Below, piece by piece: positions 3,711 to 54,224 of a stretch of 64,000 nucleotides of DNA. The stretch's first letter is position 1. Every line of letters begins with the position of its first letter. The position numbers and the translations under genes are program-made. A model generated the notes under the pieces. It saw only the letters and a program-made list of their open reading frames with translations. It did not search any database and was not told where the DNA came from. This stretch comes from a virus (Duplodnaviria; Caudoviricetes): the IMG/VR virus record IMGVR_UViG_3300021960_000017; one strand, written 5' to 3'.

Positions 3711-5264
3711 ATGCCAACAACAGTACAATTTAGACGAGGAAATACTTCCCAAAACGATTCCTTTACAGGCGCGGCTGGTGAACTTAGTATTGATACAACT
3801 TTAAATACTATCAGAGTTCATGATAATAGTACTGCTGGTGGGTACGAACTCACAATGAATAGTGCTACTCAAACTCTTACAAATAAGACTCTTACAAGTC
3901 CAGTAATTAGTAGTATCAGTAATACGGGCACACTTACATTACCAACCTCAACAGACACATTAGTTGGTAGAGCAACAACTGATACATTAACAAACAAAAC
4001 ACTTACTTCTCCAGTTATTAGCAGTATCAGTAATACTGGTACACTTACATTACCAACCTCAACAGACACATTAGTTGGTAGAGCAACAACTGATACATTA
4101 ACAAACAAGACTCTTGCGAGTCCAACAATTACTGGTACTGCTACTGTAGCGTCAATGACCATTAGTGGTGATTTAACAGTTAGTGGTACTACTGTTACCA
4201 ACAACGCAACAAACCTAGTAGTTAATGACGCTCTAATTGAACTTAACCATAGTTTAACTGGTGCTAATACAAATGACTTAGGTCTTGTCCTAGAGCGTGG
4301 TTCAACAGGCGATAACGCATTTATTGGTTGGGATGAGAGTGCAGACAAATTCATAGTAGGCACTACCACAGCAACAGGTGCTAGTACTGGTGACTTAACA
4401 ATTACAAGTGGTACACTTGTAGCAGCGACTTTTGAAGGCGCTCTAAGTGGTAATGCAAGTACAGCAAGTGCTTGGGCTACAGGCAGAACAATTTCATTAA
4501 CAGGTGACGTTACAGGTACTAGTGGCTCATTTGACGGCAGTGGCAACTTATCATTTGCTACAGACATTGCTGCTAGTGGCGTAAGTGCAGGGTCCTATGG
4601 TAGTGCAACTGCTATCCCTGTAATTACTATTGCAGCAGATGGTCGTATTACTAGTGCGTCAACTAGTGGTATTACGGTAGGCAACGGCACACTCACAATG
4701 AATGTAAGTGGTACAGGCCTTAGCGGTAGTCAAACATTTACTGCTAACCAATCAGGAAACGCTACTTTCACAGTAACAAGTAATGCTACAAGTGCAAATA
4801 CAGCAAGCACTATTGTTGCTCGCGATGCTAGTGGTAACTTTACTGCTGGAGTTATTACTGCTACAGCAACCGCTGCTAGATACGCTGACTTGGCGGAACG
4901 ATATGCGGCAGATGCAGAATATGAACCTGGCACAATAGTATGCTTGGGAGGTGAAGCAGAAGTTACGCAATCCACTAAAGCATTAGACAAAAAAGTAATT
5001 GGTATTGTGTCTACTGATCCAGCATATTTAATGAATAAAGATCTAGAAAACAGTGTTGCAGTAGCTCTAACTGGCCGTGTTCCATGTAAAGTAATTGGTG
5101 CAGTAGCAAAAGGTGATATGCTAGTATCAAGTGCTACCCCAGGACATGCAATGGCCTGGCATGAAGAAGGTGATCCACCCTATGGTAGCGTAATTGGCAA
5201 ATCTATAGAAAACAAAGATTCATCTGCTGCGGGCGTAATTGAAGTTGCTGTTGGCATAAAATAA
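3711..5264 (+). CDS. Tail fibre protein with Mtd_N-like N-terminus and peptidase G2/chaperone-like C-terminus
   Basis: MPTTVQFRRG...FTGAAGELSIDT N-terminus resembles the major-tropism-determinant/hyaluronidase N-terminal module. Carries a 37-aa tandem repeat and a C-terminal ARYADLAERY...GRVPCKV module. Confidence 0.75.
   Translation: MPTTVQFRRGNTSQNDSFTGAAGELSIDTTLNTIRVHDNSTAGGYELTMNSATQTLTNKTLTSPVISSISNTGTLTLPTSTDTLVGRATTDTLTNKTLTSPVISSISNTGTLTLPTSTDTLVGRATTDTLTNKTLASPTITGTATVASMTISGDLTVSGTTVTNNATNLVVNDALIELNHSLTGANTNDLGLVLERGSTGDNAFIGWDESADKFIVGTTTATGASTGDLTITSGTLVAATFEGALSGNASTASAWATGRTISLTGDVTGTSGSFDGSGNLSFATDIAASGVSAGSYGSATAIPVITIAADGRITSASTSGITVGNGTLTMNVSGTGLSGSQTFTANQSGNATFTVTSNATSANTASTIVARDASGNFTAGVITATATAARYADLAERYAADAEYEPGTIVCLGGEAEVTQSTKALDKKVIGIVSTDPAYLMNKDLENSVAVALTGRVPCKVIGAVAKGDMLVSSATPGHAMAWHEEGDPPYGSVIGKSIENKDSSAAGVIEVAVGIK
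3874..4108 (+). repeat. 111-bp (37-codon) tandem duplication inside the fibre gene
   Basis: TLTNKTLTSPVISSISNTGTLTLPTSTDTLVGRATTD occurs twice. 68 nt are identical between 3930-3997 and 4041-4108. Confidence 0.9.
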
Positions 5265-9058: not shown

Positions 9059-9100
9059 GGTTGACTGTCTGGGTATCTGTGTTATTATAGATATAGTTAA
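9059..9100 (+). promoter_or_regulatory. Early sigma70-type promoter (TTGACT-16-TATTAT, TGn extension, ATAGTTAA)
   Basis: Same architecture recurs at 9663, 51450, 51706, 52189 and on the minus strand at 51371-51428. Confidence 0.8.
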
Positions 9101-9117
9101 AGAAAACAGAGAGAGCA

Positions 9118-9315
9118 ATGACAATGACATACGAAGATGGTGTAATTGCTGCTACAACAGAAATTGCAAAATATGGTGTAGACTTGGAATTGCTCAACGA
9201 TTATGTTGCTAACCCAGAGCACTTCTTCCATAAGATTCCAGGCACTATTGTTGGTGACTTCCCCAACTTTACCAAAGGTTACATGGAAACAATGCTCAAA
9301 GCAAAGTCTGCGTAA
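9118..9315 (+). CDS. Small early hypothetical protein
   Basis: 65 aa, directly after an early promoter and an AGAGAGAGC RBS. Confidence 0.7.
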   Translation: MTMTYEDGVIAATTEIAKYGVDLELLNDYVANPEHFFHKIPGTIVGDFPNFTKGYMETMLKAKSA

Positions 9316-12064: not shown

Positions 12065-12685
12065 ATGATTATAGGACTTGTAGGACTTATTAGTTCAGGA
12101 AAAGGCACTGTAGGCGATATGCTTATAGAGCGTGGATTTGTGCAGGCTAGTTTTGCATCGCCGCTAAAAGATGCAGCCGCAAGTATTTTTAATTGGGATA
12201 GAGAACTACTAGAAGGAGCAACTTCAGAAAGTAGAGTGTGGCGTGAAGTTGTAGATCCATGGTGGTCTGAACGATTAAATATTCCAGATTTTAGTCCTCG
12301 TTTAGCACTACAACTTTTGGGCACAGAAGTATTTCGCAATCATTTCCATCAGGACACCTGGATACTCAGTATGGAAGCCAGGTTACGTGATGCAAAGCAT
12401 GATGTTGTAATCACAGATGCACGGTTTCCTAATGAAATAAACATGATTCGTAGACAGGGCGGTGTAGTTGTACGAGTGAAACGAGGCGTTGACCCAGAAT
12501 GGTTTAGGTTAGCAGAGCGTGATCCTGCTAGTATGCCCCAAGTTTATCCAGAAGTACATGCCAGTGAGTATAGTTGGTGCAGTATTACACCCAACTATCT
12601 TATTACTAATGATAGTACACTAGAAGACTTACAAGAAACAGTTACAGATCTTCTTCAAGATCTCCTTGCGTCCAACCAGTCCTAG
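12065..12685 (+). CDS. Deoxynucleoside monophosphate kinase (T4 gp1-like)
   Basis: MIIGLVGLISSGKGT P-loop, SFASPLKD, RLALQLLGTE and VVITDARFPNE. Confidence 0.85.
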   Translation: MIIGLVGLISSGKGTVGDMLIERGFVQASFASPLKDAAASIFNWDRELLEGATSESRVWREVVDPWWSERLNIPDFSPRLALQLLGTEVFRNHFHQDTWILSMEARLRDAKHDVVITDARFPNEINMIRRQGGVVVRVKRGVDPEWFRLAERDPASMPQVYPEVHASEYSWCSITPNYLITNDSTLEDLQETVTDLLQDLLASNQS

Positions 12686-51449: not shown

Positions 51450-51492
51450 GGTTGACTTTCTGGCTATCCGTGTTAATATGATCATAGTTAAA
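51450..51492 (+). promoter_or_regulatory. Early promoter (TTGACT-16-TAATAT...ATAGTTAA)
   Basis: Near copy of the 9059 promoter, including downstream ATAGTTAAAGAAAAC.GAGAGAGCAATG. Confidence 0.85.
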
Positions 51493-51508
51493 GAAAACGG
51501 AGAGAGCA

Positions 51509-51700
51509 ATGAGCAAAGAAGTTAGTGTACAAGAGCTATTTGCAAGCCTGCCAAATGTAGGTAACCTTGTAAAGTTTGATGTACGCACAGGCACCGTTTG
51601 TGGCACAGTAGTTGCTGTAACAGACAAGGCTGCTGTAGTTGAATCCGCACTAGGCGGTGTAATGTATCCTGTCCCTTTTAATAAGGTAAGGCCACTTTAA
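51509..51700 (+). CDS. Small early hypothetical protein (SH3/KOW-like beta barrel possible)
   Basis: 63 aa with a GGAGAGAG RBS. Confidence 0.65.
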   Translation: MSKEVSVQELFASLPNVGNLVKFDVRTGTVCGTVVAVTDKAAVVESALGGVMYPVPFNKVRPL

Positions 51701-51705
51701 AAACT

Positions 51706-51748
51706 GGTTGACAACTGCGTTATTCGTGTTAATATAGGTATAGTTAAA
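51706..51748 (+). promoter_or_regulatory. Early promoter (TTGACA-16-TAATAT...ATAGTTAA)
   Basis: Member of the repeated motif family. Confidence 0.85.
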
Positions 51749-51764
51749 CAAAAGGAGAGAGCAA

Positions 51765-51986
51765 ATGGCTACCGATTTAAGAAGCAACACAGAAGGTTTA
51801 CAGCTCACTCGTTTTTGGGGCGGAGAAAACCGCGGTGTTTGTGTACAGGTCACCTCCACTTACCGTAATCTTGCTAGTAACGAATTCTTTCAGTATGTAA
51901 CACTGAGCCGTGAAGAAGCTCGTACACTTGCAAATGATTTGCTGGCATTTGCTAACAAGCGTGAAATAGACATCACACGAGCATAA
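51765..51986 (+). CDS. Small early hypothetical protein
   Basis: 73 aa with a GGAGAGAG RBS. Confidence 0.7.
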   Translation: MATDLRSNTEGLQLTRFWGGENRGVCVQVTSTYRNLASNEFFQYVTLSREEARTLANDLLAFANKREIDITRA

Positions 51987-52188: not shown

Positions 52189-52220
52189 GGTTGACGTAAT
52201 AGCAATCCGTGCTATTATGA
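52189..52220 (+). promoter_or_regulatory. Early promoter (TTGACG-16-TATTAT)
   Basis: GGTTGAC...CCGTGCTATTAT, followed by a GAGGAGAGAGAG RBS. Confidence 0.8.
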
Positions 52221-52243
52221 AGGTATAAAGAGGAGAGAGAGAA

Positions 52244-52396
52244 ATGATAAAGTTCGTAATTACAGCCTACACAGAAAAAGGCCCTTATTCCCAAACTTCA
52301 CGTGGCACCGTAAAAGGCATGAACGACGCCTGCACTGAATTACTTCGTGATCCTAGTATTGTTCGTTACACCGTTGAAGAGGTGGAGATAGACTAA
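52244..52396 (+). CDS. Small early protein (50 aa; absent from the ORF track)
   Basis: MIKFVITAYTEKGPYSQTSRGTVKGMNDACTELLRDPSIVRYTVEEVEID*, coupled to the ATPase by TAATG. Confidence 0.65.
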   Translation: MIKFVITAYTEKGPYSQTSRGTVKGMNDACTELLRDPSIVRYTVEEVEID

Positions 52397-53445
52397 TGGA
52401 TTATGTTCTTATCGCAGACGGGCAGTATCAAAAACTGCAAATCAGAGACAAAGTGTTCCCTGTAGTAAAGGGCTTTAAAACTGGCGCCCGCGGGTCCTAC
52501 ATTACTGTGGATGCTAGCATCCTTGGTAGTGACTATGCTCGCCCAGTGCGTATTAAGTGCAGCAAAAAGGATCTAACCTTTGTAGAAGCAGATGCTTACA
52601 AGCGTCAGCTGGCTGCACTAGACATTAATCGGGATATCAAAGCTAAAAAGCAAACGACCTTTACAGAAGCTCAAGATGAGCAACGCATGAAAGAGATTGA
52701 GGAGCGTTTCGAAATCCTCAACGAAATGACAGGTGCTCTTAAGAGCGGTGACATTCGTGCAATGATTGTTACAGGTCCTCCGGGTGTAGGCAAGAGCTAT
52801 GGCGTTACACAGACACTAGAAGCACAAAGCATCTTTGAAGATGTTGCCAGTCAAAAGCGTAAGTTTGAAGTTGTCAAGGGTGCAATGACTGCACTAGGCT
52901 TGTATGCCAAACTATACGAGTACAGCGATAAAGGTAGCGTACTGGTATTCGATGACTGTGACAGTGTACTTATGGACGACCTTGCACTTAACATTCTTAA
53001 GGCTGCACTAGACTCAGGAAAGAAGCGTAAGATATTCTGGAATGCAGACAGTGCTAAATTGCGTAGTGAAGGCATTCCAAGTGACTTTGAGTTTAAAGGT
53101 ACTGCTTGCTTTATTACAAACATCAAGTTCGAGAATGTAAAGAGCAAACGGTTACAGGATCACTTAGAGGCACTGCAATCACGCTGCCACTATCTGGACC
53201 TTACACTAGACACAATGCGTGACAAGTTCCTACGCATCAAACAGATTGCTAGAACTGGCAAGTTGTGGGGTGCAGACTATGGCTTTACTCCAGAAGGAGA
53301 ACAGGAAATCCTAGACTTTATGTATGCTAACCGCAACAAACTCCGCGAAATGAGCCTGCGTATGGCTCTTAAGATTGGTGACCTTAAAAAAATATCAGAA
53401 AAGTGGAAAAGTCTTGCAGAAAGTACTTGCATGAAGCGAGTATAA
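52396..53445 (+). CDS. AAA+ ATPase of unknown function
   Basis: Walker A GPPGVGKS, Walker B LVFDDCD, FITN and ALQSRC (Arg finger). Confidence 0.85.
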   Translation: MDYVLIADGQYQKLQIRDKVFPVVKGFKTGARGSYITVDASILGSDYARPVRIKCSKKDLTFVEADAYKRQLAALDINRDIKAKKQTTFTEAQDEQRMKEIEERFEILNEMTGALKSGDIRAMIVTGPPGVGKSYGVTQTLEAQSIFEDVASQKRKFEVVKGAMTALGLYAKLYEYSDKGSVLVFDDCDSVLMDDLALNILKAALDSGKKRKIFWNADSAKLRSEGIPSDFEFKGTACFITNIKFENVKSKRLQDHLEALQSRCHYLDLTLDTMRDKFLRIKQIARTGKLWGADYGFTPEGEQEILDFMYANRNKLREMSLRMALKIGDLKKISEKWKSLAESTCMKRV

Positions 53446-53460
53446 TGTAGTATACTACAA

Positions 53461-53551
53461 GTTAGTTAGCTGTATCACTTGCTCCTCTCCTCCTCCAGAT
53501 GCAGTTAACACTGGGCGGTGTGTTTAGAAATAGACACACCGCCACTCTTTT
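53461..53551 (+). ncRNA. Candidate small RNA: 12-bp stem with anti-Shine-Dalgarno loop, followed by a terminator
   Basis: GTTAGCTGTATC (53465-76) pairs with GATGCAGTTAAC (53498-509) using two G-U pairs. Loop ACTTGCTCCTCTCCTCCTCCA. Confidence 0.5.
53514..53551 (+). terminator. Rho-independent terminator with GAAA loop
   Basis: GGCGGTGTGTTTA-gaaa-TAGACACACCGCC-ACTCTTTT. Confidence 0.85.
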
Positions 53552-53564
53552 ATTATAATAAAGT

Positions 53565-54224
53565 ATGAGTGATATGCTTTTATACACGGTAGGTGACAGT
53601 TTTACATTTGGACAGGAACTAACCGATCCTGAGAAATCCTGTTGGCCTAGACTTGTAGCAGACGCCATTGATTATAAATTAATTAATGATGGCCGGCCAG
53701 GAGTAGGTAATGAGTTTATGGTTAAAAAAACTATGCAGGCTGTTGGCGAAATAAAGCCTGATTTGGTTATAGTATCCTGGTCTAGTGCTGGGCGTTGCGA
53801 GTATGCAGATGAATGGGGAGCATATGATATTTGGCCTGCATGTAGCAGTCGTGTGTTTGACCAAGATCCTAAACTATCCTACCGTAAGCAATTAATAAAA
53901 TACATTACAGCCTATAATAATGAAGAACATGAATACCGTAGATGGTTACGACAAGTTATTCTTTTACAGAGCTTTTTAAAATGTTATAATGTAAACTATA
54001 AATTTGTATCAGCATTTGACAATCAACGCCGCAATAAACGATATATGAAGCATAGTGACGGCTATGTTCAAATGATAGATACCGATAACTTTATAGGTTG
54101 GCCATATGAAGGGCTTGTGGAATGGTCTTACAGAACTCCTCAAGGCCCTGGTGGTCATCCACTTGAAGAAGGTCACCAAAAGGTAGCGGAGAAGATAGTT
54201 GAAGCCTTGCGTATTACACGTTAA
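53565..54224 (+). CDS. SGNH/GDSL hydrolase-like protein
   Basis: YTVGDSFTFG block I, GVGN block II and HPLEEGH block V. Confidence 0.7.
   Translation: MSDMLLYTVGDSFTFGQELTDPEKSCWPRLVADAIDYKLINDGRPGVGNEFMVKKTMQAVGEIKPDLVIVSWSSAGRCEYADEWGAYDIWPACSSRVFDQDPKLSYRKQLIKYITAYNNEEHEYRRWLRQVILLQSFLKCYNVNYKFVSAFDNQRRNKRYMKHSDGYVQMIDTDNFIGWPYEGLVEWSYRTPQGPGGHPLEEGHQKVAEKIVEALRITR

Follow-up and report, generated by a model that had tools for sequence, protein, structure and literature searches.

A conserved two-hairpin RNA family in marine phages with a loop predicted to pair with early ribosome binding sites

At the 3' end of an early operon of an uncultured giant marine phage we find a two-hairpin RNA that is a member of a conserved, structured, plus-strand family, previously uncatalogued. 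The window that we analyzed is a stretch of 64,000 nucleotides, corresponding to bases 14946-78945 of a 117-kb IMG/VR virus record read on the minus strand. Positions 53465-53553 of the window would form the 3' end of an early operon consisting of a promoter (52191-52218), a purine-rich leader, a 50-aa ORF and an ATPase resembling NrdC.10 of phage T4. We regard it as almost certain that the family is real. With moderate confidence, we propose that the element acts as an anti-RBS repressor of the early ATPase operon and of sister early genes that have the same leader.

Most of what is known of post-transcriptional control in phages concerns a small number of T4 proteins (RegA, RegB and gp32). 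Regulatory RNAs directed by phages against their own genes are rare, and we know of none described for the abundant uncultured giant phages of the sea. Here an uncatalogued RNA family of more than 100 members combines strong structural covariation with a specific predicted partner, and its clade-specific pairs of leader and loop amount to natural compensatory mutants. If the proposal is true, it would allow the early regulon to be recognized in uncultured phages from sequence alone, and would illustrate a cis 3'-UTR element turning into a trans-acting sRNA.

The 117-kb record is rated only 32% complete, and therefore the full phage genome is probably well above 300 kb. The GC content of the window is 38%. 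The terminase is 52% identical to that of the Pseudomonas jumbo phage PA5oct, which is the closest cultured relative judged by terminase and ATPase; the tail sheath, tube and helicase are T4-like. A nucleotide search of a phage collection gave no match and no close relative, and the DNA sequencing runs listed as holding the stretch, 20 in number, are estuary and marine metagenomes. ATAAATA words lie 15-30 nt before the starts of several structural genes in the window (for example at 3711, 11279, 16433 and 24476). They resemble the T4 late promoter, TATAAATA, and this suggests a late transcription system like that of T4.

The two-hairpin RNA at the 3' end of the ATPase operon

A sequence-only reading of positions 53461-53551 had described the two hairpins and their surroundings, and when we re-read these from the sequence every coordinate and every sequence that it gave was correct. 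Hairpin 1 (53465-53509, plus strand) has a stem of 12 bp, two of which are G-U pairs (53465-76 with 53498-509), that presents a CU-rich loop of 21 nt (53477-53497; ACUUGCUCCUCUCCUCCUCCA), the putative anti-RBS sequence. Hairpin 2 (53514-53553, plus strand) is an intrinsic terminator, with a 13-bp stem (53514-26 with 53531-43), a GAAA loop and a U-rich tail. Just 5' of hairpin 1 (53441-53458, plus strand) there are two -10-like boxes, TATAAT (53441-46) and TATACT (53451-56), together with the 12-nt palindrome GTAGTATACTAC (53447-58), forming a possible weak internal promoter. The G-U pairs of the hairpins fit the plus strand only. The plus strand is calculated to fold with -41.4 kcal/mol (z = -5.7, with none of 200 shuffles as good), compared to -31.6 kcal/mol and z = -2.2 for the minus strand. 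If one U-rich run is set aside, the plus strand of the window has no other pyrimidine run like the CU run at 53482-96. No terminator intervenes between the ATPase stop (53445) and hairpin 2, so that the element shares the terminator of the upstream mRNA, as a 3'-UTR-derived sRNA would.

The operon, on the plus strand of the window, starts from a sigma-70-type promoter at 52191-52218 (TTGACG, 16 nt, and a TG-extended TATTAT). This is followed by the 5' leader and RBS at 52225-52246, where the purine tract AAAGAGGAGAGAGAGAAA precedes the AUG and is the predicted partner of the loop. The leader belongs to the 50-aa ORF (52244-52396), which matches no Pfam family and is read together with the ATPase, its stop codon overlapping the ATPase start (TAATG). 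The P-loop ATPase (52396-53445, with the TAA stop at 53443-45) is a homologue of T4 NrdC.10 (31% identity, E 8e-46) and not of NrdC.11. Many phage records name the ATPase homologue 'thioredoxin', a label apparently carried over from the neighboring nrdC gene.

A scan anchored on the ATPase protein gave 80 viral contigs. In the closer relatives (about 65-87% protein identity) the same two-hairpin layout is found 3' of the stop codon; the stems differ greatly in sequence and the loop remains CU-rich. From an alignment of 18 sequences we derived a consensus of 23 base pairs, 18 of which have changed on both sides with pairing kept, so that the covariation check proposed for the homologous ATPase 3' regions came out positive. 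In hairpin 1, nine of the ten stem pairs have changes on both sides. Overall 96.8% of cells are paired; sliding the 3' partners by 1-3 columns lowers this to 29-41%. The alignment has a covariation score of 0.735, compared to 0.279 in shuffles. G-U pairs fill about 39 of the 410 pair cells, and would be A-C if read on the other strand. The element is conserved in relatives with compensatory changes, and we therefore conclude that it is more than a product of chance.

We built a covariance model, termed R1, for the element. In 29 protein-anchored viral contigs it detects a single strong copy per contig, and the 117-kb record also has one copy. Five contigs of 47-203 kb yield one strong copy each, with a second, divergent copy in one of them. 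A pattern scan returned 20 viral stretches, 72 metagenome stretches (all of which pass R1) and one stretch of a prokaryote genome. In total the 29 viral and 72 metagenome contigs hold 65 distinct element sequences. More than 100 phage contigs, marine and estuarine, contain a family member, and all occurrences of the family are on phage-like contigs; the single prokaryote match among 185,579 genomes scanned, in an archaeal MAG (L113), fails the covariance model and is a chance match. Rfam 15 gave no match at the gathering score in the whole window, and for 52900-54100 gave two matches at chance level (E about 9-10), neither on the element. R1 gives no match in T4, KP182, FBB1, Atu_ph07 or PA5oct. 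In PA5oct the ATPase homologue is followed by no more than a small hairpin, and the element is absent.

The loop carries 15-25 nt of almost pure C/U, variable in length, and spans 20-27 nt across the members. Loops fall into type A, to which the window belongs, with the sequence AC(C)UUGCUCCUCC...CCA, and type B, (G)CUCCUCUCUCCUCUCUCCUCCAA. A subgroup of type B (L096:5950-6160, L118, L115, L138, L026:3773-3870 and L028:863-966) has a second, divergent CU-loop hairpin directly 3' of the ATPase, with a loop such as UCCUCUCUCUCUUCUUCUCA and its own strong terminator. The spacer between this hairpin and the main element contains 2-4 copies of AAAUUGACGG (AAA(A)UUGACGG). We considered these TTGACGG words before type B elements as possible -35 boxes, and found no -10 box at promoter distance. 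In T4 a hairpin lies directly after nrdC.10 (minus strand, L266:10290-10345), and its 5' arm and loop start, GGCAGTTCAGAAATAGA, are identical at 16 of 17 bases to GGGCAGTTTAGAAATAGA of hairpin 2 in type B members. The T4 hairpin has an 8-nt insertion before its 3' arm and is not scored by the covariance model; one T4-like record annotates a terminator at this site. The two hairpins may be homologous or convergent.

The promoter of the next gene overlaps the terminator (53531-53567, plus strand), its -35 box TAGACA (53531-36) lying inside the 3' arm of hairpin 2 and followed after 17 nt by the -10 box TATAAT (53554-59), with 11 of 12 matches. The gene encodes an SGNH/DUF6071 protein, and is probably translated from a leaderless mRNA because its ATG, at 53565, is only 5 nt after the TATAAT. 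The layout of TGTTATAAT, 5-7 nt and ATG is conserved before the next gene in most relatives; it also precedes window ORFs at 12065, 26979 and 34473. The apex motif of hairpin 2 is unique in the window. Pairing of this apex with the 5' end of the early leaders would be possible at 9 of 11 positions in type A and at none in type B despite the same apex. We therefore dropped this idea, and prefer the explanation that the conserved apex holds the predicted -35 box of the next-gene promoter. In one metagenome relative (L156) the element is followed by a tRNA-like sequence, GCGGGTGTCGTATAATGGTAATAC..., in place of the SGNH gene, which suggests that cargo genes are exchanged at the site past the terminator-promoter.

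Complementarity between the loop and early leaders

Early cassettes in the window have a TTGACA-like box, 16 nt and a TG-extended -10 box (51452-79, 51708-35 and 52191-218). Next come a conserved transcript start, which is UAGUUAAAC in type A and UAGUAAGUUG in the type B relatives, then a short leader and an RBS rich in purines. A similar cassette lies at about 9070-9120, and the repeated cassettes each drive small ORFs of unknown family. Two of the leaders, both on the plus strand, are predicted targets in trans. The first (51485-51511; promoter 51452-79) reads UAGUUAAAG..GGAGAGAGCA before the AUG of a 63-aa ORF, and the second (51741-51767; promoter 51708-35) reads UAGUUAAAC..GGAGAGAGCAA before that of a 73-aa ORF. 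The same cassette at 9094-9120 (plus strand), with AGAGAGAGCA and AUG before a 65-aa ORF, is a weaker predicted target. There are exactly two copies of GGAGAGAGCAA, at 51499 and 51754, each immediately 5' of ATG, and near copies AGAGAGAGCAA at 9108 and GAGGAGAGAGAGAAA at 52230, just as the sequence-only reading had it.

Among the 138 start regions of the 117-kb record, the five best partners of the loop include three that belong to the cassette genes immediately 5' of the ATPase. The predicted duplex has -19.2 kcal/mol for the start at 52244, second best of the 138, and -18.1 kcal/mol for each of those at 51509 and 51765; the other two of the best five are genes elsewhere with strong SD sequences. 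As a class, start regions are only about twice enriched over internal sites, as for any anti-SD sequence. When the whole element is folded together with a leader, the four cassette leaders give a ddG of -8 to -13 kcal/mol (-13.0 for 52225-52246, -11.2 for 51485-51511, -8.9 for 51741-51767 and -8.1 for 9094-9120), compared to -1.5 to -5 kcal/mol for five other starts. None of 100 loop shuffles pairs as well with the 51741-51767 leader, and the duplex of the 9094-9120 leader has -13.3 kcal/mol. The operon leader and the loop can form 8 contiguous bp (GAGGAGAG/CUCUCCUC). The immediate RBS of the ATPase in the window, one of these five other starts, is not complementary (ddG -3.4 kcal/mol); the operon leader alone is. 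Across the family, the most widely conserved predicted partner of the loop is this leader of the ATPase operon itself.

For the relatives, early leaders were defined by promoter or transcript-start motif alone, ignoring the RBS, giving 101 cassettes. For 90 distinct pairs of loop and leader on the same contig the mean is -12.0 kcal/mol, compared to -8.3 kcal/mol for 100 composition-matched loop shuffles, and most of the strongly pairing loop-leader pairs are equalled by at most 5% of shuffles. At a threshold of -14 kcal/mol or lower we find 42% of a phage's own early leaders and 5% of other ORF starts (Mann-Whitney p = 4e-23). Any CU-rich tract pairs with any strong SD. In a control with the plain 16S tail, early leaders gave -7.0 and other ORF starts -4.5, that is, early leaders have the stronger SDs, and thus part of the pairing signal is generic SD strength. 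About half of the promoter-defined early leaders of the type A relatives, those of AAGGACC type, are without complementarity.

Loop and leader go together by type. Type A loops (UUGCUCCUCC...) accompany leaders GGAGGAGCAA or GAGGAGCAAG, and type B loops (...CUCUCUCCUCCAAU) accompany (A/U)UUGAGGAGAGA or GGAGAGAGA. The preference for the own type amounts to a loop by leader interaction of -2.3 kcal/mol, a value that 5,000 permutations of the labels never reached. It arises because the non-pyrimidine flanks match their own leaders: in type A the UUGC of the 5' part of the loop matches GCAA 3' of the SD, and in type B the CCAAU of the 3' part matches AUUG 5' of the SD. In the type A ATPase leaders GGAGGAGCAA or GAGGAGCAAG opposes UUGCUCCUCC or CUUGCUCCUC, with 10 contiguous pairs; in L013 and the type B ATPase leaders GGAGAGAG(A) opposes (U)CUCUCUCC.

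The relation extends to clades without hairpin 1. In a distant clade (L019; 64-66% protein identity) hairpin 1 is absent, and a tail that spans the stop codon, UAGUUGCUCCUU, complements the leader AAGGAGUAACUA. Within it L021 has the compensating tail UAGUUACUCCU (leader/tail AGGAGUAACUA/UAGUUACUCCU), and L020 has AAGGAGCAA/UUGCUCCUU. A second protein-anchored scan, started from the L019 clade, gave still more distant groups that keep the relation with other sequences (CUAGGAGAA/UUCUCCUAG, UAGGAGUUCAGUA/UGUUGAACUCCUA, AGGAGCUA/UAGCUCCU and UGUUGAAAGGCU/AGCCUUUCAAUA), and a further co-varying pair of leader and tail is UAGGAGUUCA/UGAACUCCUA. In the distant groups the partner in the tail often lies within a hairpin loop 5' of the terminator.

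Over 84 distinct loci, many of them without the hairpin element, the leader pairs with its own tail at -13.7 kcal/mol and with permuted tails at -11.0 kcal/mol (centred trace z = -8.9, p <= 5e-5, with none of 20,000 permutations as low), where this p-value, like those of the other permutations, is optimistic, overstating independence, because the sequences are related. For 14 clade representatives again none of 20,000 permutations was as low. At least 10 contiguous pairs are found in 21% of own pairs of leader and tail, and in 2% of cross pairs. Some fits are poor: ranked among 21, the own loop comes 19th for L003, 13th for L004 and 9th for L010, and the window operon ranks 8th. Several clades are without any 3' element, and in T4 nrdC.10 no complementarity between leader and tail was seen by eye. 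Different sequences that keep the same relation of leader and tail are what a functional RNA-RNA contact would predict. The suggestion that the loop is aimed at the phage's own early RBSs therefore stands as predicted complementarity, which beats composition-matched shuffles and in which leader and loop co-vary.

Proposed function and alternative explanations

In the mechanism that we propose, hairpin 1 would display the CU-rich loop of 20-27 nt and hairpin 2 would terminate the transcript. The loop would base-pair with the SD region and flanking bases of the operon's own 5' leader, and also with the near-identical sister leaders (51509 and 51765, and more weakly 9118). Pairing that covers the ribosome binding site would lower translation initiation. 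Once the 3' end has been made, the result could be a delayed negative feedback, or shut-off, of the early genes that share the leader. Pairing in the cell, repression and its route, be it within one mRNA, between molecules or by an sRNA of ~90 nt, are what we infer from the sequences.

The element had been read as an sRNA. This is borne out as regards a conserved plus-strand RNA. A promoter of its own would be possible in part of the members, 61% of which have a -10-like box 4-10 nt 5' of the stem (37 of 61 distinct members, compared to 20% at random positions); before hairpin 1 of the window no -35 box or TG extension was found. An interaction in cis between the 5' and 3' UTRs seems as likely as an sRNA acting in trans, because it is the ATPase operon whose leader is the most conserved partner. 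In favor of trans action, the complementary leader recurs at further early genes, numbering three or four in the window and up to four per contig in type B relatives. The -10-like boxes before the stem also count on this side, as does the type B subgroup, where a different CU-loop hairpin, ending in a strong terminator, precedes the element. In favor of cis action, the element is always within the 3' UTR of the ATPase operon, hairpin 1 of the window lacks a -35 box and TG extension upstream, and in the simplest clade the tail element overlaps the stop codon, so that a promoter would have no space. Both modes may hold.

The element might instead be a 3'-end module only, a stabilizing hairpin joined to a terminator-promoter of the PeSL type, with the complementarity a low-complexity SD/anti-SD by-product homogenized by recombination. 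PeSLs are composite terminator/promoter cassettes of T4-like phages that serve as multi-copy recombination modules (PMC2839356, PMC4122927). Hairpin 2 is like them in that a stem-loop precedes an overlapping sigma-70-type promoter, and the early cassettes, composed of promoter, leader and SD, resemble their shuffling modules (PMC4122927); the weak complementarity in some members also points this way. However, the element is single-copy in the 117-kb record and the five contigs, unlike the many copies of PeSLs, and hairpin 1 has no counterpart in them; PeSLs carry no anti-RBS loop. Nor does this account explain why the C/U order of the loop fits the leaders better than shuffles, why flanks outside the SD also match (UUGC/GCAA, CCAAU/AUUG and AUAG/CUAU), or why unrelated sequences keep the relation of leader and tail in distant clades. 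We consider it unlikely.

The pairing could be real and yet protective or activating, closure of the 5' and 3' ends shielding the mRNA from RNases or timing its translation. In some clades the complementary segment of the leader lies upstream of the SD (at -22 in L072 and -27 in L080), and for these closure is favored over occlusion of the RBS. In most clades, however, the SD itself lies within the paired segment, which extends up to 3-6 nt from the AUG, and pairing of an sRNA or anti-SD sequence over the SD blocks binding of the 30S subunit. As a general explanation closure therefore appears to us quite improbable.

Ribosomal protein S1 and Rho bind pyrimidine-rich single strands, and a loop of 15-25 nt that is nearly pure C/U and variable in length might be a protein binding or decoy site for them. 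It might also mimic the 3' tail of 16S rRNA and titrate a factor or nuclease; the loop has CCUCC, and some members have AUCAC...CUCC, like GAUCACCUCC of 16S rRNA. On a decoy model, the co-variation of the leaders with the C/U order and with flanks that are not pyrimidines would go unexplained, and the distant clades have swapped the CU run for unlike anti-leader sequences, such as UGAACUCCUA and AGCCUUUCAA. We think such a role very unlikely.

We give almost no credence to a functional minus strand, whether as the GGAGG-rich RBS of the micro-ORF MIQLTNL, which the sequence-only reading had itself named as a potential refutation, or as a purine-rich RNA binding the anti-SD of the ribosome: although in the window the GTG at 53478 follows a purine run, the micro-ORF is not conserved (a start codon 3-13 nt past the purine run is missing in 44 of the 65 distinct members). 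The 39 or so G-U cells among 410 would become A-C, the minus strand folds much more weakly, and both the neighboring genes and the U-tract of the terminator point to the plus strand.

Comparison with known systems

Repression of the operon through its own 3' UTR would have its nearest mechanistic analogue in the icaR mRNA of Staphylococcus aureus, where the anti-SD motif UCCCCUG in the 3' UTR pairs with the SD of its own 5' UTR (PMC3868564). In both there is a pyrimidine-rich anti-SD motif in the 3' UTR, 5' of the terminator, that is complementary to the RBS of the same transcript; here this is found for the leader 52225-52246 and the loop 53477-97, and likewise over the 84 loci, with co-variation. 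The proposed outcome is translational repression in each case. Unlike icaR, the phage element does not lie in a bacterial regulator gene, and its motif is presented in a long hairpin loop. The phage loop also complements several sister leaders, and the relation is kept with changing sequences in many clades.

In form, the closest analogues are the cuckoo/alpha-r14 sRNAs of Alphaproteobacteria (RSs0680/CcsR1-4 and C14/NfeR1), with 2-4 adjacent hairpins that have the loop motif CCUCCUCCC (PMC4615179). The phage RNA likewise has variable, compensating stems (nine of ten pairs in hairpin 1) with a CU-rich, anti-SD-like loop that is kept, and the size of the window loop falls inside the 9-27 nt range of that family (PMC4615179). 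It differs in having one CU hairpin and a GAAA-loop terminator rather than 2-4 motif hairpins, and in lacking the exact CCUCCUCCC, the window loop being CCUCCUCC then A. It has no Rfam match, and is carried by phages at the 3' end of one gene, not by an alphaproteobacterial chromosome or plasmid. As summarized in the same source, a C-rich hairpin loop starts pairing with the SD region in S. aureus RNAIII and RsaE (PMC4615179). The phage RNA has no sequence or structural homology to these, and it differs in its phage context and much longer loop.

The nearest function in a phage would be that of T4 RegB, an endoribonuclease that inactivates early mRNAs at ribosome binding sites of the GGAG type soon after their synthesis (PMC3014915). 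The RBS of T4 nrdC.10, GGAGAAUAAAA, fits the published RegB consensus GGAGRAYARAA (PMC3014915). A search for the RegB family (PF10715) gave no match in five contigs of the phage group, nor in the control genomes. The likeness is a functional analogy only, in that early mRNAs would be selectively inactivated through their RBSs, by a protein nuclease in T4 and by the proposed antisense RNA loop here. More tentatively, long-range contact between the 5' leader and 3' UTR of the NrdC.10-like gene could be an old and conserved means of control in giant and T4-like phages. Among the marine relatives to which the window belongs, it might have grown into a loop-presented and possibly free sRNA that governs all the early genes sharing the leader, as an RNA counterpart of the shut-off by T4 RegB.
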